From: Thermodesulfobacteriota bacterium
Lineage (GTDB): Bacteria > Desulfobacterota > Desulfobulbia > Desulfobulbales > BM004
Direction: 5' to 3'
Length of the DNA: 63,856 bases
Assembly: GCA_042576125.1 (NCBI GenBank)
Contig: JBHPCH010000001.1
Location: forward strand, 1-63,856
Each line of letters begins with the position of its first letter. The first letter of the stretch is position 1. The position numbers were made by a program, and so were the translations under genes. Under the pieces are notes generated by a model, which had not been told where the DNA came from, made no database searches, and saw nothing but the letters and a program-made list of their open reading frames with translations. Below are positions 4,217 to 44,851 of this stretch, piece after piece.

Positions 4217-4292
4217 TGGCTCCCCCGGACGGACTCGAACCATCGACAAGGTGGTTAACAGCCACCTGCTCTACCAACTGAGCTACAGGGGA
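4217..4292 (-). tRNA. tRNA-Asn (anticodon GTT)
   Basis: The reverse complement reads TCCCCTGTAGCTCAGTTGGTAGAGCAGGTGGCTGTTAACCACCTTGTCGATGGTTCGAGTCCGTCCGGGGGAGCCA. It folds as a cloverleaf with anticodon loop CTGTTAA, a TTCGAGT T-loop and an encoded CCA. Confidence 0.9.
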
Positions 4293-4449: not shown

Positions 4450-4527
4450 CGGGGCGTAGCGCAGCCTGGTTAGCGCGCCTGCCTTGGGAGCAGGAGGTCG
4501 CAGGTTCAAATCCTGCCGCCCCGACCA
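4450..4527 (+). tRNA. tRNA-Pro (anticodon TGG)
   Basis: CGGGGCGTAGCGCAGCCTGGTTAGCGCGCCTGCCTTGGGAGCAGGAGGTCGCAGGTTCAAATCCTGCCGCCCCGACCA. Acceptor stem CGGGGCG/CGCCCCG, anticodon loop CTTGGGA, encoded CCA. Confidence 0.9.
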
Positions 4528-21654: not shown

Positions 21655-21672
21655 ATTTTAGGAAAGGTTGGG

Positions 21673-21819
21673 CAGGCAAAGTTCAGAAGCCAGAATTCGG
21701 AAAACAATATTGTTTGCCTCCCGTAAACAGTTCATCTCCTGGGCTGTTTTAGTCTATACTATAACCTGAATTTAAGTAGCTGTTTTTCCTGGTTTTTTCT
21801 GGCTTCTGAACTTTGCCTG
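21673..21819. repeat. 147-bp element bounded by a perfect 23-bp inverted repeat
   Basis: CAGGCAAAGTTCAGAAGCCAGAA (21673-21695) is the exact reverse complement of 21797-21819. The 101-nt interior contains the palindrome AAACAATATTGTTT (21702-21715) and the hairpin AAACAG...CTGTTT (21725-21749). Confidence 0.85.
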
Positions 21820-21832
21820 TGCAACGTATCTA

Positions 21833-28178: not shown

Positions 28179-28424
28179 GGCCATTTCACGCAGCCGAGCA
28201 GTGGAAAAATAACCGGAATAGTGCGAGAGGTAAGCGGAACCATGAAATGGCGTAGACTCCGACTGTTTGAGCACCCCTGCGGGGCATAAACTCCGCGAGT
28301 CTCGCAGCGCCCGGTTATTTTGAGTAGCGCAGGGCATCCCGTTTCAAGCGGGACAAGTGACCGGCTGCACTTTCTTCGCCGCTTTGCTGCTGGTTCGTTT
28401 CTTTATGCAAGTAAAGAATTGAAC
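28179..28424 (-). repeat. Structured intergenic repeat, copy A
   Basis: The reverse complement aligns end-to-end with copies B and C. It carries a 31-32 nt insertion (about 28229-28260) relative to C. Confidence 0.8.
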
Positions 28425-28517
28425 GTAAATAAACTATAACGAGAATTAATTGTGTTGTTAAATTTTTCGACTGATTCTCAGTTTAGAAAAACCAAGCTTA
28501 CCCACCTGATTAAGAGC

Positions 28518-29834
28518 TTAATGATTTATTAAATTTTTAGCTAACTCCCTGACCTTTGCCATTGCTTCATCTGCATCGAAGGTGAGGATTTTCCTGTCCT
28601 GCATTACGATTTCACCGTTAATGATTACGGTGCTGACATCAGCGCCTCTGGCAGCGTATACCAGCGGATAAGGATGATAAAAGGGCTGCAGATGCGGCTG
28701 CATGAGATCCAGCAGTATAACATCAGCTTTTTTGCCGGGAGAAAGGCTGCCGATCTGGTCTGCCAGCCCAAGAACAGTAGCCCCGCCAATTGTGGCCATC
28801 TCAAGAACAGTCTTTGCAGGAAGTGCAGTCGGGTCTAGGTCTTTTACCTTATGGAGCTTGGCACAAATATTCATTTCAGAAAATAAATCGAGGGTGTTGT
28901 TACTGGCACAGCCGTCGGTTCCCAGTCCGACTGATATCCCGGCTGCAAGCATTTTGCTGAGCGGTGCGATGCCGGAGCCGAGTTTCATGTTACTCTGGGG
29001 GCAGGTAGAGACCTTGGCCCCGTTTTTCGCCAATATTACAATATCTCCTTCATCCAGCCACACACAGTGGACGCAGATGGTGTCCTTATCAAGAATATCC
29101 AGACTATCCAGGTATCGTACCGGAGTAGTGTTGTGCTGTTCCTGTATCTGTTGAATTTCTGTTTTTGTTTCGGCAAGATGTATGAAAAACCTGACATTTT
29201 TCTGCCGTGCAGCTTCTTTGGCCCTTTTCAAGGTGTCAGGGGAGCAAGTGTAGGGTGAATGGCAGAAAATTGCCGGGATAATCAATTTGTTTTTGGCCTG
29301 CCAGCGATCAATAAAGTGTGCGGCTGCCTCAATATTTTGTGTTGGGTCCGGAACGCCGGGAACCGGGAAGTCGATGACACCCTGGGCGACTACAGATCGC
29401 ATACCGCTGTCAGCAAAGGCCTCGGCCGCACTGTCTTCCAGAAAATAACCGTCAGCTACAGTTGTTGTCCCTGAAAGGATCATCTCTGCAGCGGCAAGTT
29501 TTGAGCACCAGTAAACCATCTCCGGGTTCACGCTTTTGGCCTCAGCCGGAAAGATATGTTCTTTGAGCCAGGTCATCAGCTCCAGATCGTCTGCTAAACC
29601 CCGGAAAAGACTCATGGCTGCATGGGTATGGGTGTTGACCAGGCCGGGCATGACCAGGTGACCGGTAGCATCAATTGTTCTTTCAGCCCCACTTGAAGCA
29701 GGCAGATCGGTCATGGACCCCAAAGCAGAGATTGCACCATCCTTGACTGAGAGAAATCCCTTATCAATAAACTTTACCTTATTATCAGACAAAGGCAGGA
29801 TGGAACAGTTTTTAATAAGAATGTCGTCGAGCAT
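28518..29834 (-). CDS. mtaD: Amidohydrolase, 5-methylthioadenosine/S-adenosylhomocysteine deaminase-like (MtaD/TRZ-ATZ family)
   Basis: 438 aa with the metal-binding motif VNTHTHAAMSLFRG, HLAET, and GTDG..SNN. Confidence 0.75.
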   Translation of the reverse strand: MLDDILIKNCSILPLSDNKVKFIDKGFLSVKDGAISALGSMTDLPASSGAERTIDATGHLVMPGLVNTHTHAAMSLFRGLADDLELMTWLKEHIFPAEAKSVNPEMVYWCSKLAAAEMILSGTTTVADGYFLEDSAAEAFADSGMRSVVAQGVIDFPVPGVPDPTQNIEAAAHFIDRWQAKNKLIIPAIFCHSPYTCSPDTLKRAKEAARQKNVRFFIHLAETKTEIQQIQEQHNTTPVRYLDSLDILDKDTICVHCVWLDEGDIVILAKNGAKVSTCPQSNMKLGSGIAPLSKMLAAGISVGLGTDGCASNNTLDLFSEMNICAKLHKVKDLDPTALPAKTVLEMATIGGATVLGLADQIGSLSPGKKADVILLDLMQPHLQPFYHPYPLVYAARGADVSTVIINGEIVMQDRKILTFDADEAMAKVRELAKNLINH

Positions 29835-29993
29835 AATCGATATCGGCTATTGTTAAAAAGTCGTTAGAAATTGATTATTCTATGGCATTGTAGAATTGCT
29901 GCTGTAAAGTATGGATACCACGCATGTAACCGTTAAGTATAGTTTAAAAATGATCCAGCGTCTATTCTGATATAAACTGTGGAGCGCATTATA

Positions 29994-31538
29994 ATGGAGA
30001 AAAAGAAAGTAAGGGCTCTGTTTCTTTGTACGGCCAATGCGGCCCGTAGCCAGATGGCAGCCGGGATTGTCAAAAACGATTTTGGTGACAGGATTGAGAC
30101 ATTTTCAGCCGGGACGAATCCGAAAGGTGTAAGCCGGCTGGCCATCATGGTCCTTGATGAGATCGGTATTGATATCAGTTCCGAAACCTCTGATCATCTG
30201 GACAAATACAAGGACATGCAGTTTGATTACGTTATCACCCTTTGCAATGATGCCAATGAAAACTGCCCGGTATTCTTCGGGGGCATCCAGAGGCTGCATA
30301 TGGGATTTAACGATCCGCCCCATTCCAATGATGCAACTGAGGAAAACCTTGAGGAGTTCAGAGAGGTGCGGGATGCCATTCGTTTTAAGATGAAGAATTT
30401 TTTTGCCGCAGAACTGGCAAAAAAAGATACTGAAGCCCCAAGAGAAGTGGAAGATCAGCAGGTAAAAAAGCTGAGCTTTCTCGACAGGTTTTTAACCCTG
30501 TGGATATTTCTGGCGATGTTTGTTGGAGTCGGGGGTGGTTATTTTTTTCCGGGCATTAAGGATGTTATTAATTCCTTCCAGGTTGGGACAACAAATATAC
30601 CCATTGCCATAGGTCTGATTCTGATGATGTACCCGCCGCTTGCCAAGGTGAAGTACGAGCAGCTGCACCAGGTTTTCAGGAATACCCGGGTACTGGTTCT
30701 GTCGCTCGTGCAGAACTGGATAATCGGGCCGGTACTCATGTTTCTCCTGGCCATAGCCTTTCTTTCCGGCCACCAGGAATATATGGTGGGCCTCATCCTT
30801 ATCGGCCTGGCCCGCTGCATTGCCATGGTCATTGTCTGGAATGATCTGGCCCGGGGTGATACGGAGTACTGCGCCGGCCTGGTGGCATTCAACTCAATCT
30901 TCCAGGTGCTGTTTTTCTCTGTCTATGCCTACCTGTTTATCACAGTCATACCGGGTTGGCTCGGCATGAAAGGGGCAGTGGTAGACATTACCATGGGGGA
31001 AATTGCCAAATCCGTTTTCATTTATCTCGGTATCCCCTTCCTGGCCGGTATGTTTTCGCGCCTGATCGGCATAAAAACAATGGGCAAGACCTGGTATGAA
31101 GAGACTTTTATTCCTAAAATCAGTCCCATTACCCTGATCGCTCTTTTGTTTACCATCCTGGTCATGTTCTCCCTCAAAGGTGAAATTATTGTGCAGCTTC
31201 CCTTTGATGTGTTTCGGATAGCTGTGCCGCTCTGTATCTATTTTGTCGTAATGTTTCTGGTCTCTTTTTTCCTTTCCCTGAAAGCGGGGGCAACTTACGA
31301 ACAGTCAACCACCTTGAGCTTTACCGCTGCCTCTAACAATTTTGAGCTGGCAATTGCCGTGGCGGTTTCCGTATTCGGCATAGACTCAGGCCAGGCTTTT
31401 GCCGCGGTGATAGGCCCGCTGGTCGAAGTGCCGGTGCTTATAGGCCTGGTGTCTGTTGCTTTGAAATTCAAACAGAAATATTTCCCCCATGTTTTAGAGA
31501 CGCCCACAGGGATATGCCATGTGTCATGCAAACAATAA
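29994..31538 (+). CDS. Fusion protein: LMW-PTP-type arsenate reductase (ArsC) plus ACR3 arsenite efflux permease
   Basis: The N-terminal ~140 aa carry the CX5R P-loop ([10 protein letters not shown]) and the Cys pair [11 protein letters not shown], as in thioredoxin-coupled ArsC. An acidic linker follows, then the ACR3 body ([13 protein letters not shown]..., RCIAMV). The track starts at GTG 29979; the ATG at 29994 is more likely. Confidence 0.85.
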
Positions 31539-31880
31539 TTCTTTTATTTTTGAAGGGATAGGAGATGCACAATAAGAAGATCCTCGTAGTTGAGGACGAA
31601 TAAGTTCTACAGGAAGCCAGGTGGTCTGATTTTTGTTGCTGATAAAACTAAAATTTATTGCCTGATTAAGGAAAATATGTTTTCAAGGCGAAGAATTCTT
31701 ACCATTTAAAATCATTAATAATGAAAATTTGCCCGAGAGGAATAAACTACTTAATGTTAAAAGAAATAAACAGTCTTGTTATGTAATACTCATAAAAATC
31801 TAACAAAAATGATTAATAATAACCAGCATGGAAAATGGCCGACAAAGCCATATACCCGTCAAAGCAATTGAGGTAAACAT

Positions 31881-32552
31881 ATGAATATCATACGGGATTT
31901 ATTCGGTAAATCGCCTTTCGCTCCTTTAGTTGAGCATACAAAAAAGGTTCACGAATGCGTCGAAATGCTTAAACCGCTCATGGAAGCGCTGGTAAATGAG
32001 GATTATGACGAAATCCGCAAAATCCAGGATAAAATTTCCAGACTTGAATATGAGGCGGATACAATCAAGCATGATGTGCGTGAGCATCTGCCCCGGCGTT
32101 ACTTTATGCCGGTTGAGCGGGGGGACCTGGAAGGCTTTATCAGCTGTCAGGACAATATAGCTGACAAAGCTGAGGATTTTGCAGTTATCCTTACCTTGCG
32201 CAAGACCAAACTTCATCCTGCTGTCATGGATAAGTTCTTTGATTTCCTGGATCAGATCTTTCAGGTTACCGGAACACTCCTTGGCGCTGCGGTAGAGCTG
32301 AATAATCTTGCAGAGGTTTCTTTCAGCGGTGCTGAAGCCAAACATGTCCTTGACATCCTCCATGGGCTTAACGAGGAGGAATGGAAGGCAGACCGGTTAG
32401 CACGTAGTCTGAGTAAGGATGTCTACCGTCTAGAAGATCAACTGGATCCGATCACTATTATATTTTATGAAAAGATGATCATTGCTTTAGGCTCTATCGC
32501 CAATGAAGCAGAAAATGCCGGCGACAAGCTCAGGACCATGATCCTTAAATAG
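31881..32552 (+). CDS. PhoU-like DUF47 (TIGR00153) protein, phosphate-transport accessory/regulator
   Basis: 223 aa and all-helical, positioned directly upstream of a PiT transporter as in the conserved DUF47-PiT gene pair. Confidence 0.75.
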   Translation: MNIIRDLFGKSPFAPLVEHTKKVHECVEMLKPLMEALVNEDYDEIRKIQDKISRLEYEADTIKHDVREHLPRRYFMPVERGDLEGFISCQDNIADKAEDFAVILTLRKTKLHPAVMDKFFDFLDQIFQVTGTLLGAAVELNNLAEVSFSGAEAKHVLDILHGLNEEEWKADRLARSLSKDVYRLEDQLDPITIIFYEKMIIALGSIANEAENAGDKLRTMILK

Positions 32553-32579
32553 TTTTATTCAGAACCCACCACTGATTCC

Positions 32580-33902
32580 ATGGATATTATAATATTAGCC
32601 GCGATGGCCCTCCTGGGGCTTTATATGGCCTGGAACATAGGAGCGAACGATGTGGCTAATTCCATGGCCGATGCCGTCGGCTCCGGGGCCTTATCCGTTA
32701 AACAGGCGGTCATTGCAGCAGGCATCTGTGAGTTTGCCGGTGCTGTCCTGGTCGGCTCCCACGTAACAGATACAATCCGCAAAGGTATTGTTGACCCCTC
32801 AGCCATAGCCTCGATTCCTGGTATGCTGGAGGGTGAACCGGCAGCACTCCTGGTCATCGGCATGTCAGCTGCCCTGTTGTCAGCAGCCCTCTGGCTTAAT
32901 TTTGCCACCTGGACCGGAATGCCTGTTTCCACTACCCACTCCATTGTCGGCGCAGTGGCTGGTTTCGGCATTGTTGCAGCCGGTATCGGTTCTGTCCACT
33001 GGGGCAAGATGGGGCAGATTGTGGCCAGCTGGTTTATTTCTCCCTTTGCCGGCGGCCTCATGGCCTTTATTCTTTTCAAAATCATCAGTAAAGCCATTCT
33101 CGGCCAGGAAAAGCCGGCTAAGGCAGCCATCAAAGTCACGCCGTATATTGTTTTCTTTTTAGCCATGGTTGTAACCCTGGCCACAATTTATAAAGGATTT
33201 AAGCATGTCATTAAAGGGCTTGACTGGCTGACCGATACCCATACATTGCTTATCGCTGTGGTTATAAGTGTAATAGCTACCCTTGTATCAAGGATTCATG
33301 TAAAGAAGAAACTGGAAGGCAAGGAATCCCTGCCACTTCATCAACAGCTTGAGAAGGTTGAAGAAGTCTATGTACCCCTGGTTATTATAAGCTCCTGTGC
33401 TGTGGCTTTTGCCCATGGTGCCAATGATGTGGCGAATTCGGTAGGTCCCCTGGCCGCCGTGGCAAATATATTAAAGACTGGCACGGTGGAGATGAAAGTG
33501 CCCGTGCCCATGTGGATCCTGATGCTGGGTGGTGGTGGCATTGTGCTTGGCCTGGGTACTTATGGCTACAGGGTTATGGCAACTGTTGGGACCAAGATTA
33601 CCGAAATCACCCCAACCCGTGGAGTTGCTGCCGATATTGCCGCAACTGCCACGGTTCTCATCTGCACCCGTATGAAACTGCCTGTTTCAACAACGCATAC
33701 CCTGGTGGGAGCTATAATGGGTATTGGCCTGGCCCGTGGTCTTTCAGGTATTGACAGCCGTATCGCAAAAAAGATTTTTAAATCCTGGATTATCACTGTC
33801 CCCGCTGCAGCAATAGTTTGTATCATTCTTTTTCTGCTTGGCAGGGCATTTATGCTTGATTTTGTAAGGGGGTTGGTGCTCGCTGCCAGGGCCGCCGGTT
33901 AA
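32580..33902 (+). CDS. pit: Inorganic phosphate transporter, PiT family
   Basis: 440 aa with two copies of the PiT signature GANDVANS (GANDVANSMADAVGSG and GANDVANSVGPL). Confidence 0.9.
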   Translation: MDIIILAAMALLGLYMAWNIGANDVANSMADAVGSGALSVKQAVIAAGICEFAGAVLVGSHVTDTIRKGIVDPSAIASIPGMLEGEPAALLVIGMSAALLSAALWLNFATWTGMPVSTTHSIVGAVAGFGIVAAGIGSVHWGKMGQIVASWFISPFAGGLMAFILFKIISKAILGQEKPAKAAIKVTPYIVFFLAMVVTLATIYKGFKHVIKGLDWLTDTHTLLIAVVISVIATLVSRIHVKKKLEGKESLPLHQQLEKVEEVYVPLVIISSCAVAFAHGANDVANSVGPLAAVANILKTGTVEMKVPVPMWILMLGGGGIVLGLGTYGYRVMATVGTKITEITPTRGVAADIAATATVLICTRMKLPVSTTHTLVGAIMGIGLARGLSGIDSRIAKKIFKSWIITVPAAAIVCIILFLLGRAFMLDFVRGLVLAARAAG

Positions 33903-33903
33903 C

Positions 33904-34049
33904 CCGCATTTCTCAAAAACAATAGAGCCGCATCTACATCGGAGTTTCCTTACAGGCGTTTACCTGTCGCAGGGAATTGGGCATATTCTTAATATAGCGC
34001 AATTCCCTGTTCCTCGTATCTGCAACTTTCTCGCCTGTGAGAAATGCGG
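33904..34049. repeat. Compound palindromic element between convergent pit and nfo
   Basis: Outer perfect 12-bp inverted repeat CCGCATTTCTCA (33904-33915) / TGAGAAATGCGG (34038-34049). Inner perfect 10-bp inverted repeat CAGGGAATTG (33970-33979) / CAATTCCCTG (34000-34009). Confidence 0.75.
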
Positions 34050-34065
34050 ATTAAGGTCTACTTGA

Positions 34066-34929
34066 TTATTTTTCCTTTTTTTCTATCAGACTTCTTAACA
34101 ATTTCAGGTTTTCAATATCTTCCTTCAGGTCTTTTTCTTTGGGAGTTTCCAGTATCATGGGATGCCCTGCAAAACGCGGATCGTTCATAAGAAGTCTGAA
34201 TCCCTCCAATCCAATTTCTCCTTTGCCGATATGTTCATGGCGGTCAACTTTGGAGCCCAATCCTTTTTTTGAATCATTGAGATGGAAAAATTTCAGCCGC
34301 TCTAGTCCTATAATTTTGTCAAAAACTGCAAAGGTCTTTTCATATCCTGCTGAAGTGTTTATTTCATACCCTGCTGCAAAGGCATGACAGGTATCAAAAC
34401 AGACACCCAAGCGTTTACTGAAGGTAGAGTTGTTAATAACATAAGACAACTCCTCAAAGCTTGAACCGAGACCGGTGCCCTGGCCTGCTGTTGTTTCAAG
34501 CAGGATCATAACCGATTGAGCATCAGCTGCCGCTGTAAAAGCCCGGTCCAGATTTACAGTCAGCTGCTCAAGGCCTTTTTCAATGCCTGAACCTAAATGG
34601 GAGCCAGGGTGCATGATCAGGTAGGGAATAGATAGTTGATCAGCCCGGCGGATCTCTTCTGCAAAAGCACCAACCGCCCTGTTCGCCTTTTTTTCATCAG
34701 GATTTGCCAGGTTGATAAGATATGAGTTGTGGACGGCGACAGGGCCTTTACCCCATTGGTTCCAAGTCTTAATAAATTCTTCAATCCCGGCAGGACTCAA
34801 CTCCGGCACTTTCCATTGCCGCTGATTCTTGGAGAATATCTGCAGGGACTGCCCCCCGACCAGGGTGATCCTTTCAAAGGCTTTATGCAGGCCTCCCTCA
34901 ATGGACATGTGAGCACCTAAAAGTGGCAT
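34066..34929 (-). CDS. nfo: Endonuclease IV (AP endonuclease)
   Basis: 287 aa with N-terminus MPLLGAHMSIEGG and the metal-ligand motifs HNSYLINL, HPGSH and FHLNDSK. Confidence 0.9.
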   Translation of the reverse strand: MPLLGAHMSIEGGLHKAFERITLVGGQSLQIFSKNQRQWKVPELSPAGIEEFIKTWNQWGKGPVAVHNSYLINLANPDEKKANRAVGAFAEEIRRADQLSIPYLIMHPGSHLGSGIEKGLEQLTVNLDRAFTAAADAQSVMILLETTAGQGTGLGSSFEELSYVINNSTFSKRLGVCFDTCHAFAAGYEINTSAGYEKTFAVFDKIIGLERLKFFHLNDSKKGLGSKVDRHEHIGKGEIGLEGFRLLMNDPRFAGHPMILETPKEKDLKEDIENLKLLRSLIEKKEK

Positions 34930-35209
34930 TTTTATTCCTCAAAAAAATTATTTAGACCTGATTTCAATGAAATTATTTATTACTGTATATTGTATTGGTG
35001 TAGTTTTAAAATAAAAAACGACACTAATTGACGGCAGGCCCTGGCCTGACAATTGCATGTATGTTTTTGTAATTTTTTTTCATTCCCGGCAGAGTTTGTA
35101 AACTATATTGTTGACCAGAAAACCAAAAAATTATAGGTTAATTAACTTGTTAGTCTAATTTTTCAATAAAGTCAGTTGTCAGCCAAGAGCTAATAACAGG
35201 AGGACCCCG

Positions 35210-37075: not shown

Positions 37076-37097
37076 TTAATTATTATATAATTATAGA

Positions 37098-37135
37098 AGC
37101 CGACCACAGTCTTGTGGTCGGCTTTTTTGTTTTTC
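37098..37135 (+). terminator. Intrinsic terminator of the OmpA-family gene
   Basis: AGCCGACCACA-GTCT-TGTGGTCGGCT (11-bp stem) followed by TTTTTGTTTTT. Confidence 0.75.
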
Positions 37136-37160
37136 AAATAAAAAATATTTTATAGCTATA

Positions 37161-37371
37161 TGTTCATTTTCTTTGCTTGTCCAAAGAAAACGAACCAGCA
37201 GTGAAGCGGCGAAAGAAAAGACAGCCTCTCACTCGCCGTTTCACTGCTGGCCTTCGGCTACTCTGCGCTGCTTGAAAAATTCGGGCGCTGAAAAACTCGC
37301 CATAATAAATGGCTCAGACAGTTTCAGCGCTATTCCGATTTTTTCTACACTGCTCGACTGCGTGAAATGGC
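37161..37371 (+). repeat. Structured intergenic repeat, copy B
   Basis: The first 66 nt match copy C at 65 positions. The element ends with CTGCTCGACTGCGTGAAATGGC. Confidence 0.8.
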
Positions 37372-37453
37372 AAAAACAAAAACTATGCCTCCTCTTGGTT
37401 TTCCCTGTTGAATACCAAAGGTTGTCTTATAACCAAACATTTTTAAAATGGCT

Positions 37454-38224
37454 TTATTGTTTGGACTCCAGCAGGTCCTGCCAATCCTGTTGAAGTATTT
37501 TTAGGGCGTCGTAGTTAGTGGGATCAAGATGCATGGGTGTTATGGAAATTTTGTTTACACTTATGGCAGCCGAATCAGTGTCTTCACCTGCATCAAATGA
37601 CGGGGTACCTCCGCCTATCCAGTAATGTTTTCGTCCCCACGGGTCGCAAGTCTCCTTGATAGCATCTTCATAAAGCCTCCTGCCTCTCCTGGTAAATGCC
37701 ACCCCGGCAATTTTGTCTGTAGTCGTGTTTGGAACATTGACATTGAGCAGGGTGTCCTGCGGCAGCCCTCTCTCCAGTATAAGGGCGGCAAGTTTCACCC
37801 CAAAGTCAGCTGCAGTTTCATAATAAAGAGGCGCTTCGTCTGGAAGGGCCAGGGACAGAGCCATTGACGGTATACCGAGCATGGTAGCCTCAATGGCTGC
37901 CGATACCGTTCCTGAGTAGCTCACATCATCGCCCAGGTTGGCACCCGGATTAATTCCTGAAATCAAAAGGTCCGGTTTTTCGGTCAGTATTTTACCAATA
38001 CCAATTGTGACGCAATCCGTTGGTGTGCCGTCAATGGAGTAGATATCCTTTTCGAGTTCCCTGACCCGCAGGGGTCTGTTCATGGTTAATGAGTGGGAGG
38101 CCGCACTGTTGTCATGGACCGGGGCGATAATGACTGTACTGCCTAATTTTTGAACTTTGCTGAAAAGGATTTGCAGTCCTGGGGCGTGAATTCCATCATC
38201 GTTAGTTAGCAGTATTTTTATCAT
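37454..38224 (-). CDS. surE: 5'/3'-nucleotidase SurE
   Basis: 256 aa with the signature N-terminus MIKILLTNDDGIHAPGL. Confidence 0.9.
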   Translation of the reverse strand: MIKILLTNDDGIHAPGLQILFSKVQKLGSTVIIAPVHDNSAASHSLTMNRPLRVRELEKDIYSIDGTPTDCVTIGIGKILTEKPDLLISGINPGANLGDDVSYSGTVSAAIEATMLGIPSMALSLALPDEAPLYYETAADFGVKLAALILERGLPQDTLLNVNVPNTTTDKIAGVAFTRRGRRLYEDAIKETCDPWGRKHYWIGGGTPSFDAGEDTDSAAISVNKISITPMHLDPTNYDALKILQQDWQDLLESKQ

Positions 38225-38249
38225 GTACCCGGCCCTGTGTGGAAAAAAT

Positions 38250-40085
38250 TTATTGTTGACGACTCCAGGCTTTCAGGTTTGCAGGCCATCTTTTATGAAG
38301 GAAAAAATCCATTTGACGCCTGTAAAAAACATGGTTCGCAGGGTCATAACGAATAGCCATTTCTTCATACTCAATAGCCTTTTCCAGCATATTGTTGGCC
38401 CAGTAGGCTGATGCCAGGGTGTCCAGGATATATCCTGTTCTCGGACTTAGCGATGACGCTTGTAAGGCCAGAGATAATGCCCGCTCAGGGTCAGAAACAA
38501 CCGGATTGCCGGACGTTATAAGAAGCCACGCCAGATTATTCAATATCTGAGGATTGTCCGGCTCCAGGGCAAGAGCTTTTTCATAAGCTGCCAGAGATTG
38601 TGCACCCTGACTCAACTCCTGTTTGAGGTCGCCCAGCAGACGATGCCAGATTGCTTTTTCCGGTTCCCGGTGCGCTTTTTGCTGTAATACAGCTTCAACG
38701 AATTTACTATTGGCCTGATCATCAAGCTCCATGGGCATGTTCCAGAATATTCCACCGCTGAATGCAAGCAGGACAATAAAAAGAATGAGACTTCCGTAAA
38801 CTTTGCGGTCGTGACGGGCAATTAATGGCTTGTCTTTACTGCATTTTTCCAAAAAGTCCACCCGCTGTCCGATACCGAAGTGATGCCAACTCGGTTTGTC
38901 GCGAATATTACCGCTCAACCAGCCGATTTTTTCCAGGGAACTGATCAGGGGTGTACTGTCACCAAGAGCTTTGAATACCTGCGTGTCTGCCTGCCGTTCA
39001 AAATTTCTCATAAAAAAACCAAAAACATAACGGAAGTAGACAATCATGATGATAAACATCGGAGCTGTACCCCAGAAATTTAATGCAGTTTCAGGGGCAA
39101 TCTTGGTTGCGTTGATTATGTGGTAAAAAAAATTTGAGTTTAATAGAAGGTAGAGTAAAGGGCTGGCGATCATGCTGGCTACAAGTCCGAAACCCATTAA
39201 AAGCAGGAGGTAAAGCTGAAGATGGTGTTTTTTGACATGACCGATTTCATGAGCCAGAACAGCTTCAATTTCATAAGGGGTTAGAGCTTCCAGAAGAGCC
39301 GGTGTGATGAGAAGGTACCTGTATCTTTTTGACAGACCCATAACTCCTGCTGTTAGCATTTTCCCTTCGTAAAAAGGCCAAAGCATTATGTCAGTGTAGC
39401 TGAATTGCTGTTTACGGCAGAATTCTTCCATATGTTCGCGGGCAGGACCTTCCGGCATTGTTTGGCAGTTCCAAAGATGTTTTATGAGCACAGGGAAAAA
39501 AACAGCCAGCAGAAGGAAGAAAAACAGTAACAGTATTGATTCCCCCCATTCTGATGAAACCAGACTTTTTACCAGCGGAAAAGGTAGAATATTGAGAATG
39601 TCAGCAATGAAATTGACTATGAGCCAAGGTAGAATTATTGGAATATTAAACTTAATATTGTTAATGACAAATTCTTTGGCAGAGTAGTGGCAATTGAAAA
39701 TTTTCAGGTAATTTTTTCTGGCAGCTACCCACAAAAGGGAAAGATAAAAGAAAAACAGGGCTATGCCTGCCAAGCTGAGCAATACAGGCAAATTACCGTT
39801 AAAGGAGAGAAAAGAAAGGTAATACTTTAAGTCTAGCAGATAGACATCAATTGCAAAAATTATAATTGCGAGAAGTGAAAACTTCTGCTCTATGTCAAAA
39901 TATCGCTTGTCATTGGAGACCCGTCTCCTGGAGTGGGCATAGTGGACGAGATAAAGATATGCTCCCCCTTTAACCAGGAAAACAATCAAGGCTGCAGTGA
40001 AGGGGATTTGCGGTGTATCCGGAACACTTACAGTTGAGAATATAATGATGACTGTGATGAGGTAAAGGAGGTTCTTGTAGATCAA
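38250..40085 (-). CDS. Membrane M48-family zinc metallopeptidase with C-terminal TPR repeats
   Basis: 611 aa with multiple TM helices, the zinc motif HEIGH (LAHEIGHVKKHH), and a TPR-like C-terminus. Confidence 0.75.
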   Translation of the reverse strand: MIYKNLLYLITVIIIFSTVSVPDTPQIPFTAALIVFLVKGGAYLYLVHYAHSRRRVSNDKRYFDIEQKFSLLAIIIFAIDVYLLDLKYYLSFLSFNGNLPVLLSLAGIALFFFYLSLLWVAARKNYLKIFNCHYSAKEFVINNIKFNIPIILPWLIVNFIADILNILPFPLVKSLVSSEWGESILLLFFFLLLAVFFPVLIKHLWNCQTMPEGPAREHMEEFCRKQQFSYTDIMLWPFYEGKMLTAGVMGLSKRYRYLLITPALLEALTPYEIEAVLAHEIGHVKKHHLQLYLLLLMGFGLVASMIASPLLYLLLNSNFFYHIINATKIAPETALNFWGTAPMFIIMIVYFRYVFGFFMRNFERQADTQVFKALGDSTPLISSLEKIGWLSGNIRDKPSWHHFGIGQRVDFLEKCSKDKPLIARHDRKVYGSLILFIVLLAFSGGIFWNMPMELDDQANSKFVEAVLQQKAHREPEKAIWHRLLGDLKQELSQGAQSLAAYEKALALEPDNPQILNNLAWLLITSGNPVVSDPERALSLALQASSLSPRTGYILDTLASAYWANNMLEKAIEYEEMAIRYDPANHVFYRRQMDFFLHKRWPANLKAWSRQQ

Positions 40086-40330
40086 AGTTGTGACCTGTTA
40101 TAAAAAGTGAAATGGTTATTTGATTAGCAGGAAAAGCATTTGCCCATAGGACAAGACAGGCTTTGCCATGAGTCATGCAAAATTTATATTAAAGAATGAG
40201 TAGGGTCAAGAGAAACCATTTTATCTGCATCAATCCTGGAGCATTAGTTAATCCCATTCAAATTACAGTGATTTAGAAGTTGACAAATATAATAGCCTGG
40301 AGTAAAAAAACAAATTCGGTTTTTTGGGAT

Positions 40331-40407
40331 GGGCCTATAGCTCAGTTGGCTAGAGCCACCGGCTCATAACCGGTCGGTCCCTGGTTCGAGTCCAGGTAGG
40401 CCCACCA
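40331..40407 (+). tRNA. tRNA with CAT anticodon (elongator type; Ile2/lysidine or Met)
   Basis: GGGCCTATAGCTCAGTTGGCTAGAGCCACCGGCTCATAACCGGTCGGTCCCTGGTTCGAGTCCAGGTAGGCCCACCA. G1-C72 is paired and there is no GGG/CCC anticodon stem, so it is not an initiator. The T-arm and variable region resemble tRNA-Ile2. Confidence 0.85.
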
Positions 40408-40740
40408 GCTAACAAGGCAGACCATCCATCTGTATTTACAGATAGCCGGCTTCGTTAAAGTTCTCATCTTACAGATTCTTTACATATAACATATTGATAG
40501 TATTAGAATCTGTTGTGACTGAGGGATTTGCTACAATGTAATTAATACTTGAGCTTATGTCTGTATGTATTCCCTGTCCGGTAGCAATATACAGATCTTG
40601 AGCCTTTTTGCAGCAACATAAAATGAAATGGCAGGTAAGTAGTAATAAAATTGTGGTTTCCAGGTTTTATCGACTGAAAAAGTGGCCCTGGGGGTTAATT
40701 CTCAAGGGGAAGCCACGAATAGTTTTCTGGATTGAAAGAA

Positions 40741-40777
40741 AAGGTGCACCTGAAAAAGAGGTGTGCCTTTTTTCTTT
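40741..40777 (+). terminator. Candidate intrinsic terminator about 30 nt upstream of nif3
   Basis: AAGGTGCACC-TGAAAAAGA-GGTGTGCCTT (10 bp including 2 G-T pairs) followed by TTTTCTTT. Confidence 0.45.
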
Positions 40778-40809
40778 GTGATAAATGAATGCATTCTTTT
40801 TGACTTGAG

Positions 40810-41652
40810 ATGGGAAGAAATCTGACAATAAAAGACTTACTTCAAACACTGGACAAGATCGCGGCTTTCGGCCTGGCAGAACAATGGGATAATGTCGGCC
40901 TCATGGTTGGAGACCCGAAACAGGAGATAAAAGGCATCCTGGTAGCGCTTGATCCTACTGAAGATTTACTTGCCGAGGCAGAGAAATGCGGAGCAGACTG
41001 CATCATTACCCACCACCCCCTCATTTTTACCCCCCTCAAAGCAATATATACGAATCAGCCGTTGGGCAGGTTTTTAAGCCAGGCTCTGAAGAATGAGATT
41101 TCAATAATAGGCTGCCATACGAATTTGGACCAGGCTATCGGAGGAGTCAATGATGTACTTGCCTCCAGTCTTGGTATGGTGGAAACAAGGCCCCTTGCCC
41201 CAACTGTTCAGAGTCATGATACATCAGTCACAGAAATTGGATTTGGGCGTGTTGGTCGTCTTGTCAAAACTTTGAGTCGGCAAGCATTTATTGAAAAGTT
41301 ATGCCTGTTTTTTAATTTGCCGGCCTTGCGTGTTGCAGGACAGATACCCGAGACAGTAAGCACAGTCGCAGTGTGTGGTGGCAGCGGGTCTGAATTGGCG
41401 GAAGCAGCCTTTGCCGTTGGAGCGGAAGTGTATATAACAGGTGAAGTGAAGCACAGCACAGCAAGATGGGTTGAGGCCTCAGGTTTTTGTATTATTGATG
41501 CAGGCCATTTTGCAACAGAGAATCCGGTTGTTGAATCTTTAGTCAGTACCCTTGAGACCGTTTTGGCTGAAAAAGGGATCGGCATCCCGATAAAATCCTC
41601 TGCAAAACAGCAAAACCCTTTTACATTTTATCAACCCGGAGTGCAGGGGTAA
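40810..41652 (+). CDS. Nif3-like dinuclear metal centre protein (YbgI family)
   Basis: 280 aa. The N-terminal pattern AEQWDNVGLMVGD and the ITHHPLIF motif are typical of NIF3/YbgI. Confidence 0.85.
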   Translation: MGRNLTIKDLLQTLDKIAAFGLAEQWDNVGLMVGDPKQEIKGILVALDPTEDLLAEAEKCGADCIITHHPLIFTPLKAIYTNQPLGRFLSQALKNEISIIGCHTNLDQAIGGVNDVLASSLGMVETRPLAPTVQSHDTSVTEIGFGRVGRLVKTLSRQAFIEKLCLFFNLPALRVAGQIPETVSTVAVCGGSGSELAEAAFAVGAEVYITGEVKHSTARWVEASGFCIIDAGHFATENPVVESLVSTLETVLAEKGIGIPIKSSAKQQNPFTFYQPGVQG

Positions 41653-41766
41653 TTGATTGGACGTACGCTCATCCATAAATACATCAACCGAGCTTAGAAT
41701 TTTTAAAAAAATTATCATATAAAAATAAAAAGACGAAAATAACGTTAGCTATCAAGGAGACAACCA

Positions 41767-42486
41767 TTGAATGAAGAGATTAAGCAGTTGACAGAACTGC
41801 AGGTAATTGATCTGGAAATCGCTCTGCTGGACGCTGAGATAAGCTCTGAGGAGAAGGAACTTGCAAAAAGAGAAAAGGCTTTTAATGAACGTCGGGAATC
41901 CATCACTGAATTGAAGGAAAAAATTGAAGCCGCCGAAGCGCAGCGCCGGGAAATTGAAGCAGAACTTGCTGATGAGATGGCCCGGATTAAAGAGCGTCAG
42001 TCCAAAATGATGCAGGTACAGACAAACCGTGAGTACCAAAGTCTGTTGAAAGAGATTGAAGACGCCAAAAAAAATATTAAGGACAAGGAAGAGGAAATTG
42101 TCAGCCTTATGGAAACCAGTGAAGCCAATAGTAAAATTATGGCTGAGCAGGAGAATCTGATATCAGATGAAAATAAGATTCTTGACGAGGAAAACGCAAA
42201 AATCAAGAAGCATGCAGCATCCATTCAAAGGAAAATAAAGAAAATTGCCACGACGCGTAATAAAATGGCAAAAGAGATTAAGGCTTCCGTCCTGAGAAAA
42301 TACGATATGCTTCGTGTACGACGCAACAATAAAGCTGTTGTAGGCGTTGTCAATGGTGTTTGCCAGGGATGTTTCATGAGCATTCCTCCCCAGCATTTTA
42401 ATAATATTTTGAAGGGAGACATGATGCTTGACTGTCCAACCTGTCAGCGCATTCTTTTTCATGATCCGGAGAGCTCGGAGGAGTAA
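41767..42486 (+). CDS. Coiled-coil protein with C-terminal C4 zinc ribbon (COG1579/DUF164-like)
   Basis: TTG start preceded by AAGGAG. A long heptad-rich region is followed by CQGC...CPTC. Confidence 0.8.
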   Translation: MNEEIKQLTELQVIDLEIALLDAEISSEEKELAKREKAFNERRESITELKEKIEAAEAQRREIEAELADEMARIKERQSKMMQVQTNREYQSLLKEIEDAKKNIKDKEEEIVSLMETSEANSKIMAEQENLISDENKILDEENAKIKKHAASIQRKIKKIATTRNKMAKEIKASVLRKYDMLRVRRNNKAVVGVVNGVCQGCFMSIPPQHFNNILKGDMMLDCPTCQRILFHDPESSEE

Positions 42487-42629
42487 GTTCCGGGTTTAGC
42501 AAATAGATCTCTTTACCTTTTGGGGGAAGCCAGGCAAAAGCCTTTGGTTTTGTCTCATTCATTACAGTACAGCCTCATGGTAACTGAAATCACTTTACAC
42601 ATGGCTGACTGGACCTAACTATAAATTTT

Positions 42630-42979
42630 GGAGTGGGCGCATGATCGCTGGCCTTTTGGGACCAGAGGAAAGTCCGAACTTCACAGGGCAGGGTGGTTCG
42701 TAACGCGAACTCCGAGTGATCGGAGGAAAGTGCCACAGAAAACATACCGCCCGTTTTTGGCGGGTAAGGGTGAAATGGTGAGGTAAGAGCTCACCGCTTT
42801 CATGGCGACATGAAAGGCAGGGTAAACCCCACCCGAAGCAAGATCAAATAGGGAAACGTTTGAGGGCTGCCCGTCTGATGTTTCCGGGTAGATCGCTGGA
42901 GGTGCCGGGTGACCGGCATCCAAGATAAATGATCATGGTCCCCATGCGGGATACAGAATTCGGCTTACAGCCCACTCCA
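42630..42979 (+). ncRNA. rnpB: RNase P RNA, bacterial type A
   Basis: P1 GGAGTGGGC / GCCCACTCC, the universally conserved GAGGAAAGTCCG and ACAGAA..CGGCTTA(C), plus GGTAAGGGTGAAA and AGCAAG..CAAATAGG blocks in canonical order. Confidence 0.95.
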
Positions 42980-42988
42980 ATTTTTTAT

Positions 42989-43203
42989 TGTTCATTTTCT
43001 TTGCTTGTCCAAAGAAAACGAACCAGCAGCGAAGCGGCGAAAGAAAAGACAGCCGATCACTTATCCGCCTAAGGCGGATTCCCTGCGCTGCTCAAAATAA
43101 CCGGGCGCTGTGAAACTCGCGAAGTTTATGCCCCGCAGGGGTACTCAAACAGTCCTCGCGCTGTTCCGGTTATTTCTGCGCTGCTCGGTTGCGTGAAATG
43201 GCG
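42989..43203 (+). repeat. Structured intergenic repeat, copy C (starts 9 nt after rnpB)
   Basis: The reference copy: 5' hairpin at 42996-43017, variable hairpin at 43063-43079, a long central hairpin capped by GCCCCGCAGGGG, and a 3' end ...CTGCTCGGTTGCGTGAAATGGC. Confidence 0.8.
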
Positions 43204-43275
43204 CAAAAAGTAAAAACCTAAAGTTTATATAATATTTTAAGGTTATTAACCTTTAATTTTTAGCCTTGCGTATAA

Positions 43276-44487
43276 ATGAATCCCTCCAAAGTAGCCGCAA
43301 TCATACCAGCCGCAGGAAGCGGCATCCGTATGGGGTTGCCTTCCCCAAAGCAGTTTTTCGAACTGGACGGGATCCCCATCCTCATCCGTACACTCCAGGT
43401 ATTTCAGCAGGCAGATGCAGTAGGGTGTATCGTTGTGGTTGTTCCACAGGACAGTTGTTCTCAGGTTGCTGAGCTGGTGCAGAAATACGAACTTGCCAAG
43501 GTGTTCAAAGTTGTTGCCGGGGGCGAATATCGCCAAGATTCCGTCCTCTCAGGCCTTGAAGTCTTGCCCCGGGAAATAGAACTTGTACTGGTCCATGATG
43601 GGGTCAGGCCCTTTGTCCCTGTTTCTGTTATTGAAAACTGCATTGATGTAGCAGAAAAAGAAGGGGCAGCAATGGCAGCAATACCTGTCAAGGATACCCT
43701 GAAGGCAGTTTTGCCAGATGGAGTTATTGAACATACCATTGACAGAACAGGGGTCTGGCAGGCACAGACACCACAGGCTGCAAGAGTTTCACTTTTAAAG
43801 AAAGCTTTTGCCGGTGCAACAGAGAATAAAAGTTTTATTGCCACAGACGAGGCATCATTACTTGAACGCATCAATATCCCTGTAAAGGTGGTTGAGGGGT
43901 CGGAGAAAAACATAAAAATAACCAGGCCTGAAGATCTCTTTCTTGCCCAAGCCATACTTATGGAAAGCAGGGGCGACAAAAATGTTCTGGATGGAAGTCG
44001 GGACTATCGTATTGGCTATGGATATGATGCGCATACTCTGATCGATGGGAGACCTCTCATATTAGGGGGCACCACAGTTTCGCATGCCAGGGGATTGCTG
44101 GGTCATTCAGATGCAGACGTGCTGCTCCATGCCCTGTGTGATGCCATGCTCGGAGCTGTTGCCATGGGGGATATAGGGCAGCATTTCCCAGATACTGACA
44201 AAAAATATAAAGATATCAGTAGTTTGAAAATTCTGAAAGCTGTCTACGGTTTGGTAGAAGAGTTTGGCTATATGTTGCATAATGCAGATATAACTGTGGT
44301 GGCTCAGAAACCCAAACTGGCTCCCTACTTAGAGGACATGACAAAGAACATTGCAGCTGAAATAGGAACCGATCAGGACAATATTAACATAAAGGCCACG
44401 ACCACTGAAGGCATGGGGTTTGAGGGAAGAGAGGAAGGCATATCAGCCTATGCTGTTGTACTTCTTAAAAAAAGCAATCAGTCTTAA
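43276..44487 (+). CDS. ispDF: Bifunctional IspD/IspF (MEP cytidylyltransferase / MEcPP synthase)
   Basis: 403 aa. The N-terminal IspD motif is AAIIPAAGSGIRMG; the C-terminal IspF motif is RIGYGYDAHTL...GHSDADVLLHA. Confidence 0.95.
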   Translation: MNPSKVAAIIPAAGSGIRMGLPSPKQFFELDGIPILIRTLQVFQQADAVGCIVVVVPQDSCSQVAELVQKYELAKVFKVVAGGEYRQDSVLSGLEVLPREIELVLVHDGVRPFVPVSVIENCIDVAEKEGAAMAAIPVKDTLKAVLPDGVIEHTIDRTGVWQAQTPQAARVSLLKKAFAGATENKSFIATDEASLLERINIPVKVVEGSEKNIKITRPEDLFLAQAILMESRGDKNVLDGSRDYRIGYGYDAHTLIDGRPLILGGTTVSHARGLLGHSDADVLLHALCDAMLGAVAMGDIGQHFPDTDKKYKDISSLKILKAVYGLVEEFGYMLHNADITVVAQKPKLAPYLEDMTKNIAAEIGTDQDNINIKATTTEGMGFEGREEGISAYAVVLLKKSNQS

Positions 44488-44580
44488 GCGGTCATCTTTC
44501 AGAAAAAATATCCATAAACTCTACTATGTTAAGCAAGACAGAATAGGATTTAAAAGAAACTTAAATTGTTTTAAGGGTTT

Positions 44581-44778
44581 TGTCATTTTACGTAGCCGAG
44601 CAGCGGAGTAAAAAGTAGATAAACGACTCGGCGGAGCAACGCGACTTTCCGAGGCGTCTGCTTTTTGTGAGCAGCACAGGGTAGTCCCGCTGTGCGGGAC
44701 CAAGTGAACGGCTGCCTTTTCTTTGGTTCGTTTCTTTGCACCCTTAAAACAGGGCATGAAGGCAAGCAAAGAAATGAA
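44581..44778 (-). repeat. Structured intergenic repeat, copy D (diverged, with internal deletion/insertion)
   Basis: The reverse complement shares the 5' hairpin arms (TTTCTTTGC/GCAAAGAAA), the variable hairpin GTCCCGC-N3-GCGGGAC, and the 3' end CTGCTCGGCTACGTAAAATGAC. Confidence 0.7.
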
Positions 44779-44851
44779 TAATAAATCTAGATATAGAGAT
44801 AATTACTTCGATTTTTTACTTCGGGAATTTAGAAGATTATAAAACGTAATA

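Follow-up and report, generated by a model that had tools for sequence, protein, structure and literature searches.

The 63,856 nt of contig JBHPCH010000001.1 (assembly GCA_042576125.1, a Thermodesulfobacteriota bacterium of the Desulfobulbales lineage BM004) that were analysed here, hereafter the window, carry four copies (A to D) of a genuine multi-copy, highly structured intergenic repeat family, F1, about 120 copies of which are spread over 158 related loci. This family is widely distributed and persists vertically, and together with a sister family, F2, it makes up a superfamily that is specific to one clade of Desulfobulbales. The original prediction, made from the letters of the window alone, had placed the four copies correctly, with shifts of 1–2 nt at most, but had treated the element as a single unit; it is instead a mosaic of nested hairpin modules that are gained and lost independently. 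We lean towards reading it as a non-autonomous mosaic repeat system resembling the repetitive extragenic palindromes (REPs), bacterial interspersed mosaic elements (BIMEs) and REP doublets forming hairpins (REPINs), in which one DNA strand would fold, a trans-acting enzyme, slippage and gene conversion would spread and remodel the copies, and these would persist vertically. This reading is based on the distribution, the mosaic build, covariation, a strand asymmetry, arrays, module turnover, targeting by an insertion sequence (IS), and the lack of target-site duplications (TSDs), terminal inverted repeats (TIRs) or a parent; from these observations we infer the single-stranded DNA mechanism and the enzyme.

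Distribution of the family

The common end of the four copies, a 22-nt box (CTGCTCGGYTGCGTGAAATGGC), matches four times in the window at three or fewer mismatches, where shuffled sequences lead one to expect 0.00 matches, and the near-identity of B and C that had been noticed also held, with one mismatch in the first 66 nt and 96% identity over the first 73 nt. An exact search with a degenerate form of this box, in the Genome Taxonomy Database (GTDB) with one genome per species, returned 56 loci, nearly all from about 12 metagenome-assembled genomes (MAGs) of Desulfobulbaceae/Desulfobulbia/Thermodesulfobacteriota, and a metagenome scan with the box added 102 contigs from marine, estuarine and salt-marsh sediments, whereas a viral collection gave 0 matches on its contigs. 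Across the resulting 158 loci (given L-numbers below), an nhmmer profile recovered 96 near-full-length F1 copies, or about 120 when those truncated at contig ends are included, and about 20 copies of F2. L096 is near-identical to the window, and L026 and L014 (MAG CSMAG_2950) are syntenic with it at 75–85% identity. The few box matches in Planctomycetota, Verrucomicrobiae and one Sphingomonadaceae MAG, and those in contigs of an “uncultured delta proteobacterium” MAG (L001, L012, L029, L031), were set aside as chance hits, as they lie in unrelated or coding sequence and were not confirmed by nhmmer.

A mosaic of nested hairpin modules

Described in the orientation of the original prediction, the proposed order of a 5' hairpin, a purine-rich linker, a variable hairpin and a long imperfect hairpin is correct and common to the roughly 120 copies. 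The terminal hairpin, H1, consists of a pyrimidine arm GTTCWTTTTCTTTG and a purine arm CAAAGAAAANGAAC around a conserved loop GCTTGCCC, and its arms shorten or vary jointly (GTTCATTTTG/CAAAACGAAC; GTATAC../..GTATC). It is followed by an A-rich linker with GGCAGCC at its 3' end and by the first strand of a closing helix, in which GCC-N-TCAC pairs with the last ten bases of the element, GTGAAATGGC (GTGA-AAT-GGC); the 22-nt end box is nearly invariant and pairs back to GCCNTCAC. It is this helix that is conserved, rather than the pairing of a 5' CGAACCAGCAGCG with a 3' CGCTGCTCGG that had been put forward, which depends on an optional module missing in most copies. The short hairpin H2, with CCCTGCGCTGCTC directly after it, is almost free in sequence while its pairing is maintained. 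The long imperfect hairpin H3 occurs in at least three subtypes; its internal-loop sequences GAAACTC and CTCAGACAG are kept in subtypes I and III and in F2, and its flanking helices covary (GGCGCTG/CAGCGCC, GGAGTTTGA/TCAAACTCC, GACGCTG/CAGCGTC). On either side of H3 stands a direct repeat some 11 nt long, CTGYGCTGCTC (DR1 and DR2), the second copy of which runs into the 22-nt box. Even the flanks are stereotyped, with a T-run and then A(T/C) before H1, and AWWW and then A6 past the box; TTAT or TTAC ends the 5' flank in 16 of 76 copies.

Units span 110–300 nt with three or four hairpins. The minimal unit of about 110 nt comprises H1, the A-rich linker, H2 and the 22-nt box, as in L019, which lacks H3 and one of the direct repeats, and likewise in L099, L101 and L090. 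Several optional modules are added to this frame: a stem extension (CAGCAGCGAAGCGGCG ... CGCCGCTTCGCTGCTGG), represented by one arm only in A and C; a mini-hairpin (SGRAG-TTTATRCCCC-N-GGGGTR-CTS) that is placed within the loop of H1, behind H2, at the apex of H3 or ahead of the box, with 70 distinct instances, tandems of up to at least four, and some occurrences outside elements; a cassette GTCGGCA..TGCCGAC-GATTGACA; and a cassette CGGAGTCT..CCGCTTACC that is present in copy A and is also found outside elements. Cassettes are nested at recurring points, often immediately 5' of GCTGCTC, a linear motif that recurs beside H2, H3 and many mini-hairpins. At the other extreme, solo 22-nt boxes with the usual A-rich tail stand in L004 (2433-2468), L028 (7261-7293), L038 (7648-7669) and L045 (6389-6410) with no recognisable remainder of an element; the one in L038 begins directly after a stop codon, and that in L045 lies tail-to-tail with an F2 3'-end fragment.

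F2, of which the window has no copy, has the architecture of F1 in a different sequence and ends in ...GCTCAGCGGTACAGAAYGGG. Its closing helix, CCCG-CTGTACCG / CGGTACAG-AA-CGGG, is the counterpart of that of F1 and covaries between copies. In 11 of 14 F2 copies an F1 copy lies tail-to-tail at 15–45 nt, and L112, L087 and L100 hold F1/F2/F1 or F2/F1/F2 arrays in strictly alternating orientation, with head-to-head spacers of 26–42 nt and tail-to-tail spacers of 15–45 nt. Such an alternating arrangement is a defining feature of BIMEs (PMC2817692).

As had been supposed, the element has no conserved reading frame: frames differ among copies, the indels (14, 21–23 nt) are not multiples of three, and no Pfam family matched the translations; related predicted open reading frames (ORFs) numbered only 5 among 5.8 billion proteins, too few to claim a wider family. 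A Bacteroidetes origin, at first suggested by translations such as FFACPKK...LLGCVKW, was discarded in view of the GTDB search. Rfam release 15 at the gathering threshold returned only rnpB and three tRNAs from the whole window, and there were no matches to known IS-associated RNA motifs. Permissive Rfam scans of copy C, L112, L087, L154 and L019 gave as their best hit Flavo-1 (RF01705), at 22–25 bits against a threshold of 42; the match concerns only H1 of L019, with its U-rich and A-rich arms, leaves the rest unmatched, and is a compositional resemblance of one hairpin. The box sequence had no match in the paper texts of a literature search, and in the paper on the closed genome of Candidatus Electrothrix scaldis, the one genome paper found to treat repeats in related cable bacteria, the repeat analysis was limited to repeats >250 bp at >99% identity. 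The earlier inability to assign the element to a known family thus extends to Rfam, Pfam and the literature, and within the limits of the libraries searched the family is undescribed.

A second short repeat, of about 50–85 nt, follows the 3' box directly in L007, L015, L024, L056, L030 and L046 and is also present in the FO_M loci L043, L035, L009 and L013, while in L041 (734-785) it stands alone and inverted. Its sequence is AAAAACATTTTATTACTGTGRACA...AAGACCCTTTTAGGG in Ww487/MB4D and AAAAAGCTTGACTGCCGATATTGATTACCCTTTTAGGGT in FO_M, and it probably represents a further repeat family in these genomes.

Covariation and the folded strand

Helices of the element are maintained by compensatory changes. 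The structure that RNAalifold derives from 46 diverse copies contains H1, the closing helix, H2 and, of H3, the outer part, and compensatory double changes occur in 22 of its 37 pairs. Paired cells make up 93.2% of the total against 81.4% in shuffles, double-change cells number 218 against 67 ± 8, and the covariation score is 0.331 against 0.131 in shuffles (reached by 0 of 500) and 0.05–0.10 when the partners are slid by 1–3 columns, so that the proposed helices covary well above both kinds of control. The closing helix is nearly invariant within F1, and the covariation that supports it shows when F1 is set against F2. For copy C taken alone, the folding z-score is −3.1 for RNA, whichever strand is used, and −4.4 for DNA; covariation is the same signal for RNA and for single-stranded DNA.

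Broken pairs bear on the choice of strand. On the strand chosen in the original prediction they are mainly A.C, which corresponds to G.U on the complement: the RNAalifold table holds about 58 A.C against 16 G.U with two constant columns excluded, and in a fold blind to G-U pairs the single mismatches inside helices are 75 A.C against 10 G.T for that strand and 79 against 16 for the complement, with the same trend in F2. The complement is also the more stable in 77 of 91 copies, by a mean of 6.1 kcal/mol (p = 1.5e-13). Mutational strand bias is an unlikely cause of the asymmetry, because copies lie both ways relative to their neighbours. All this makes it probable that the strand that folds is complementary to the orientation first chosen. 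UUCG and GNRA tetraloops were considered as a further strand indicator and discarded, the loops being tri- or pentaloops and hence uninformative.

Module turnover at orthologous sites

Orthologous sites place the insertion of copy B in time and show modules changing. The site of copy B is filled in L026, whereas in L083, L072 and L153 it is a convergent gap of about 50 nt with a terminator only, so that the insertion of B is younger than the splits from those three and older than the split between the window and L026. Between B and its counterpart in L026, H1, linker and H2 are 96% identical, H3 differs in subtype (52% identity) and identity in the flanks is 60–70%. An element adjoins the rnpB 3' end in at least five related genomes (window/L096, L099, L014, L072 and L082): in L099, with near-identical flanks, it lacks H3 and one 11-nt repeat and its H1 loop carries 23-nt mini-hairpins in a tandem of three, of which the window copy, equipped with H3, has none there, and in L014 only both ends are retained around a rearranged interior. 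L081 and L149, the same locus at 99.8% identity, differ by one 33-nt hairpin cassette just 5' of CGCTGCTC. Taken together, these comparisons show that modules arrive, disappear, multiply in tandem and are exchanged in situ; loss of H3 would be the expected product of replication slippage between its flanking repeats. The site of copy D in L129 holds an orthologous element that has itself been invaded by an IS481-family IS, and in more distant relatives sites B and D are empty, with intergenic DNA too diverged for base-level boundaries.

Two further indels between L077 and L102, contigs that are 99% identical, involve cassettes of this kind. A 1028-nt stretch of L077 (11946-12975), missing in L102 between flanks of 99% identity, begins with two mini-hairpin cassettes, contains a 174-aa ORF of Pfam DUF7826 and a unit of about 22 nt repeated three times in tandem (ATTATTCAACACGTTGTTGAGTT-like), and may be a small mobile unit using the same cassettes. 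Conversely, a 311-nt segment of L102 (1964-2276), missing in L077, holds the motif CGGAGTCTCGC...CGCTTACC; as this motif also occurs within H3 of copy A (28229-28262), the cassette belongs to another small mobile repeat.

Tests for transposition and an IS481-family invader

The element does not behave as an ordinary MITE (miniature inverted-repeat transposable element). Among 78 copies, flank matches indicative of TSDs were as frequent as in shuffled pairings, whether boundaries were taken as exact or with 3 nt of slack. No TIRs were found, the two ends GTTCATTTTC and GTGAAATGGC being asymmetric and sharing only a YCATTT core. No autonomous parent with the same termini was present in the loci searched, nor did any split copy enclose a gene, save three that contain an IS481-family IS. 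No transposase recurs as a neighbour among 828 ORFs, and the neighbouring proteins cluster by synteny only.

The IS481-family IS, 1.32 kb long, lies inside three unrelated copies (L149, the same as L081; L064; L129), and encodes a 396-aa rve/DDE transposase between 25-nt inverted repeats of its own (GTACGGTTTATAGACATAGGTAACA) that are unrelated to the element ends. Its copies are 85–88% identical to each other, and all entered at the same point, the junction of the linker (...AAAGGGCA) and GCCNNTCAC, that is, the linker/closing-helix boundary. We considered this IS as the parent of the family and rejected it: the element consensus retains nothing of the IS ends, which marks the IS as an invader that has a site preference. 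In L064 the IS links an F2-type head to an F1-type body, a chimera that suggests recombination between IS copies.

Genomic context

The original prediction had noted that every copy begins after a gene that shares its reading direction. This stands for the four window copies, all of which begin 7–93 nt past a co-directional gene or rnpB, and fails for the family: of the 66 copies for which a crude ORF heuristic called both neighbours, 35 have an upstream gene in their own direction and 31 one in the opposite direction. By arrangement, 18 copies are tandem in the predicted orientation, 24 tandem in the opposite one, 17 convergent and 7 divergent, so that divergent gaps hold fewer copies than convergent ones, and a smaller copy set gave agreeing counts. 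No terminator-like site was found at the element ends, and readings of these ends as sigma-70 or sigma-54 promoters gave no consistent hexamers. Copy B cannot be a plain 3' untranslated region (UTR) extension, as it sits 26 nt beyond the intrinsic terminator of the upstream OmpA-family gene, which lies outside the element and belongs to its context. Copies appear to accumulate where little harm is done, after terminators and between convergent genes.

Interpretation of the repeat system

We posit that both the spread and the remodelling of the copies take place on DNA, by way of hairpins that form in one single strand, the complement of the orientation first chosen. A trans-acting and probably single-copy enzyme might recognise the invariant box and the hairpins, much as the RAYT/Y1 HUH transposases do with REPs and REPINs; the remaining remodelling could proceed by replication slippage between the 11-nt repeats and by gene conversion, and copies would be kept vertically in harmless intergenic places. 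Uses to the host, such as mRNA 3'-end protection or protein binding, would be secondary, if there are any. Several observations weigh against this reading. No mobilising enzyme came to light: neither the loci nor the window yielded a Y1/HUH-like ORF to a crude motif search or to tblastn with an approximate IS200 TnpA query, a weak search given that a single-copy gene is rarely expected within these loci. When sequences were compared all against all for indels, no clean pair of an empty and a filled site at near-identical flanks came out for a whole element, and the boundaries and insertion chemistry are accordingly deduced. The units are about five times the length of a REP, and H2 varies in sequence, unlike the hairpins recognised by RAYTs. 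Part of the wobble asymmetry stems from inherited sites (e.g. A.C in H1) and not from independent events, and the asymmetry fits an RNA of the complementary strand equally well. Finally, covariation in multiple helices, the conserved internal loops (GAAACTC / CTCAGACAG) and the conserved H1 loop are also expected of a functional RNA.

These last points are what recommends a family of structured noncoding RNA genes, which we regard as unlikely but the most serious of the alternatives. The paralogous genes, of about 170–250 nt, would be read from the complementary strand, starting at GCCAUUUCACGCAGCCGAGCAG and ending with H1, and the fold itself would be the product, as a trans-acting small RNA or a protein-binding or guide-type RNA. 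Besides the strong covariation in several helices and the H1 and H3 loop sequences shared by F1 subtypes and F2, it would account for the tolerance of G.U-type pairs on one strand only, the 96% identity of the 5' part between orthologous sites whose flanks have drifted to 60–70%, and the position beside rnpB kept in at least five related genomes. Set against this, neither end has a conserved promoter-like motif, the flanks offering no more than a T-run before and an A-run behind the element, and the terminal hairpin is not followed by a U-tract terminator in either orientation. Whole H3 hairpins and half-stems are present or absent between copies and even between near-identical strains, which is hard to fit to one functional fold; solo boxes, head-to-head and tail-to-tail arrays and the lack of an Rfam match also speak against it, and the high conservation can be explained as well by concerted evolution of repeats.

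Improbable, in our judgement, is the 3'-UTR option of the original prediction, by which the element would be a cis-acting module (a terminator, mRNA stabiliser or processing signal) that is transcribed with, and serves, the co-directional gene upstream. The positions of the window copies agree with it, convergent gaps are enriched relative to divergent ones, and REPs and BIMEs are known to act in this way; yet the orientation counts of the whole family are nearly balanced, copy B lies past a canonical terminator, and in four relatives site B has that terminator alone, so that the gene works without the element. The element end, moreover, offers no hairpin with a U-run, and the wobble asymmetry favours the other strand.

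Somewhat more doubtful still is a fold acting as a complementary-strand RNA in its own propagation, which would start with the invariant 22-nt sequence and be closed by GUGA.../...UCAC; one form of this idea is a guide-, bridge- or template-type RNA of a trans-encoded enzyme. If true, Desulfobulbales would have a new class of RNA-dependent mobile element whose variable parts are the nested cassettes. Least probable of all is an ordinary MITE, that is, what internal deletion has left of a DDE-transposase IS, moved by cut-and-paste through TIRs and leaving TSDs: the copies are non-coding, numerous and inserted at AT-rich sites, their ends share a weak YCATTT likeness (GTTCATTTTC and the reverse complement GCCATTTCAC) and an IS is physically associated with three of them, but chance-level TSDs, asymmetric ends, an internal IS with unrelated inverted repeats and no remnant in the consensus, and the lack of a transposase family recurring beside the copies contradict it, as does persistence at orthologous sites across species, which is atypical of IS-driven MITEs.

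Relation to known repeats

The closest known system to the mosaic repeats favoured here is that of the REPs and BIMEs of Enterobacteria and Pseudomonas, with their RAYT/TnpA-REP Y1 transposases (PMC2817692, PMC3333891). Like these, F1 and F2 are extragenic, multi-copy, imperfect palindromes, mosaics of few recurrent motifs that form alternating units with short linkers (L112, L087, L100), without TSDs or coding capacity and with a preference for gene 3' ends; REPs and BIMEs are documented site-specific targets of ISs (PMC1525189), as the present repeats are of the IS481-family IS. Unlike a REP, which is a single 20–40-nt palindrome, an F1 or F2 unit has 110–300 nt, three to four hairpins and a long-range closing helix; it has no GTAG-type 5' tetranucleotide, its motif being GCTGCTC (GAGCAGC on the folded strand), its H2 is free to vary in sequence, and its host clade is the Desulfobulbales, for which we found no such description. 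REPINs are REP doublets that form hairpins and make up vertically inherited populations (PMC3116915). The present repeats share with them the apparent vertical persistence, genome-specific subfamilies, persistence at orthologous sites across species, and inverted doublets (the F2/F1 tail-to-tail pairs); they differ in that the halves of a doublet come from two diverged families, each half is a complex multi-hairpin unit, and most copies are singletons.

Modular build, intergenic location, extensive predicted structure and possible co-transcription are also properties of the pneumococcal BOX, neisserial Correia and enterobacterial ERIC/IRU elements, and F1 resembles these in being modular, structured and intergenic with a variable number of internal modules. 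Correia and ERIC elements have clear TIRs, and Correia a TA duplication as well, neither of which F1 possesses; in BOX the modules follow one another linearly (A-Bn-C), unlike the small hairpins of F1, which sit inside larger ones at several positions. Asymmetric ends, lack of TSDs and structure on one strand only characterise the IS200/IS605-derived PATEs and the TnpB omega-RNA regions. F1 is like the IS200/IS605 derivatives in the first two respects and probably in the third, and its 5' flanks ending in TTAT or TTAC recall the IS608 target; however, H1 begins at the first base and is not subterminal, no tnpA/tnpB parent was found in the loci, and the flank past the conserved end is a fixed A-rich tract, unlike the variable guide of TnpB omega-RNA regions.

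In kind the system is a variation on the REP/BIME theme, and what is new are the far larger units, the nested cassettes, the two alternating families and the host clade. To our knowledge, in-depth work on interspersed palindromic repeats has been confined almost entirely to Proteobacteria such as E. coli and Pseudomonas, and the present hosts are environmentally important, mostly uncultured sediment bacteria of the sulfur cycle. At its present standing the finding is a solid new family of a familiar kind, without a new principle: a well-populated superfamily, structurally far more elaborate than the REP/BIME models, and a natural system in which hairpin cassettes are caught entering, leaving, duplicating and swapping between near-identical strains. 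For Desulfobulbales MAGs it is a strain-typing and assembly-breaking feature as well as a specific IS target site, and it provides a case in which the existence of REP/RAYT-like domesticated transposition outside the classic hosts can be tested. Should the fold prove to act as an RNA in mobility or regulation, that would amount to a new RNA class.

The window copies, their neighbours and minor observations

All four window copies are intergenic singletons, with C and D inverted around ispDF (Table 1). Their predicted neighbours were recovered as an amidohydrolase (MtaD-like), an OmpA/PD40 protein, rnpB and LigT/ThpR, to which IspDF and SurE can be added. A repeat scan of all 63.9 kb found no other genuine repeat family.

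Table 1 Coordinates of the F1 copies, their modules and other features (window positions unless a locus is named)
Feature	Position	Strand	Remark
Copy A, F1	28180-28424	-	245 nt
Copy A H1	28393-28424	-
Copy A CAGCAGCAAAGCGGCG module	28377-28392	-	left arm only
Copy A H2	28337-28353	-
Copy A DR1	28322-28332	-
Copy A H3	28206-28321	-	long hairpin
Copy A mini-hairpin	28270-28294	-	within H3
Copy A extra CGGAGTCT..CCGCTTACC module	28229-28262	-	within H3
Copy A 3' box	28180-28201	-
Copy B, F1	37162-37371	+	210 nt
Copy B H1	37162-37195	+
Copy B CAGCAGYG / CGCCG..CTGCTG stem module	37196-37211, 37234-37249	+	both arms
Copy B H2	37249-37259	+
Copy B DR1	37263-37273	+
Copy B H3	37274-37345	+
Copy B 3' box	37350-37371	+
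Copy C, F1	42990-43202	+	213 nt; starts 7 nt past rnpB 3' end
Copy C H1	42990-43023	+
Copy C stem module	43024-43039	+	left arm only
Copy C A-rich linker	43040-43051	+
Copy C closing helix, 5' strand	43052-43060	+
Copy C H2	43064-43078	+
Copy C DR1	43083-43093	+	CTGCGCTGCTC
Copy C H3	43094-43175	+
Copy C mini-hairpin	43121-43145	+	within H3
Copy C DR2	43176-43186	+
Copy C 3' box	43181-43202	+	contains closing helix, 3' strand
Copy C closing helix, 3' strand	43193-43202	+
Copy D, F1	44582-44779	-	198 nt; most diverged of the four
Copy D H1	44726-44779	-
Copy D mini-hairpin	44739-44760	-	22 nt, in H1 loop
Copy D H2	44683-44701	-
Copy D DR1	44669-44679	-
Copy D H3	44608-44668	-	subtype II
Copy D 3' box	44582-44603	-	3 mismatches
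Intrinsic terminator of OmpA-family gene	37095-37136	+	GCCGACCAC..GTGGTCGGC hairpin and T-run
rnpB (RNase P RNA, bacterial type A)	42629-42983	+	Rfam, 327 bits; left neighbour of copy C
tRNA gene	4220-4292	-
tRNA gene	4450-4524	+
tRNA gene	40331-40404	+
IS481-family IS	L149 5400-6720 (= L081 1-611)
IS481-family IS	L064 90-1412
IS481-family IS	L129 1581-2905

The ispDF leader shows a microsatellite-like expansion, with AACCTTT repeated five times in L014 (about 395-430) and a single TTAACCTTTAATTTTTAGCC in the window (43240-43262). Two inverted repeats elsewhere in the window were also recorded. The arms of the first, 34 nt long, 88% complementary and 101 nt apart, lie at 21662-21695 and 21797-21830 (GAAAGGTTGGGCAGGCAAAGTTCAGAAGCCAGAA / TTCTGGCTTCTGAACTTTGCCTG...), and it bears no relation to the element family. 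The second, with 39-nt arms at 33899-33937 and 34016-34054 that are 72% complementary and 78 nt apart, lies in the gap of two convergent ORFs ending at 33902 and 34066.

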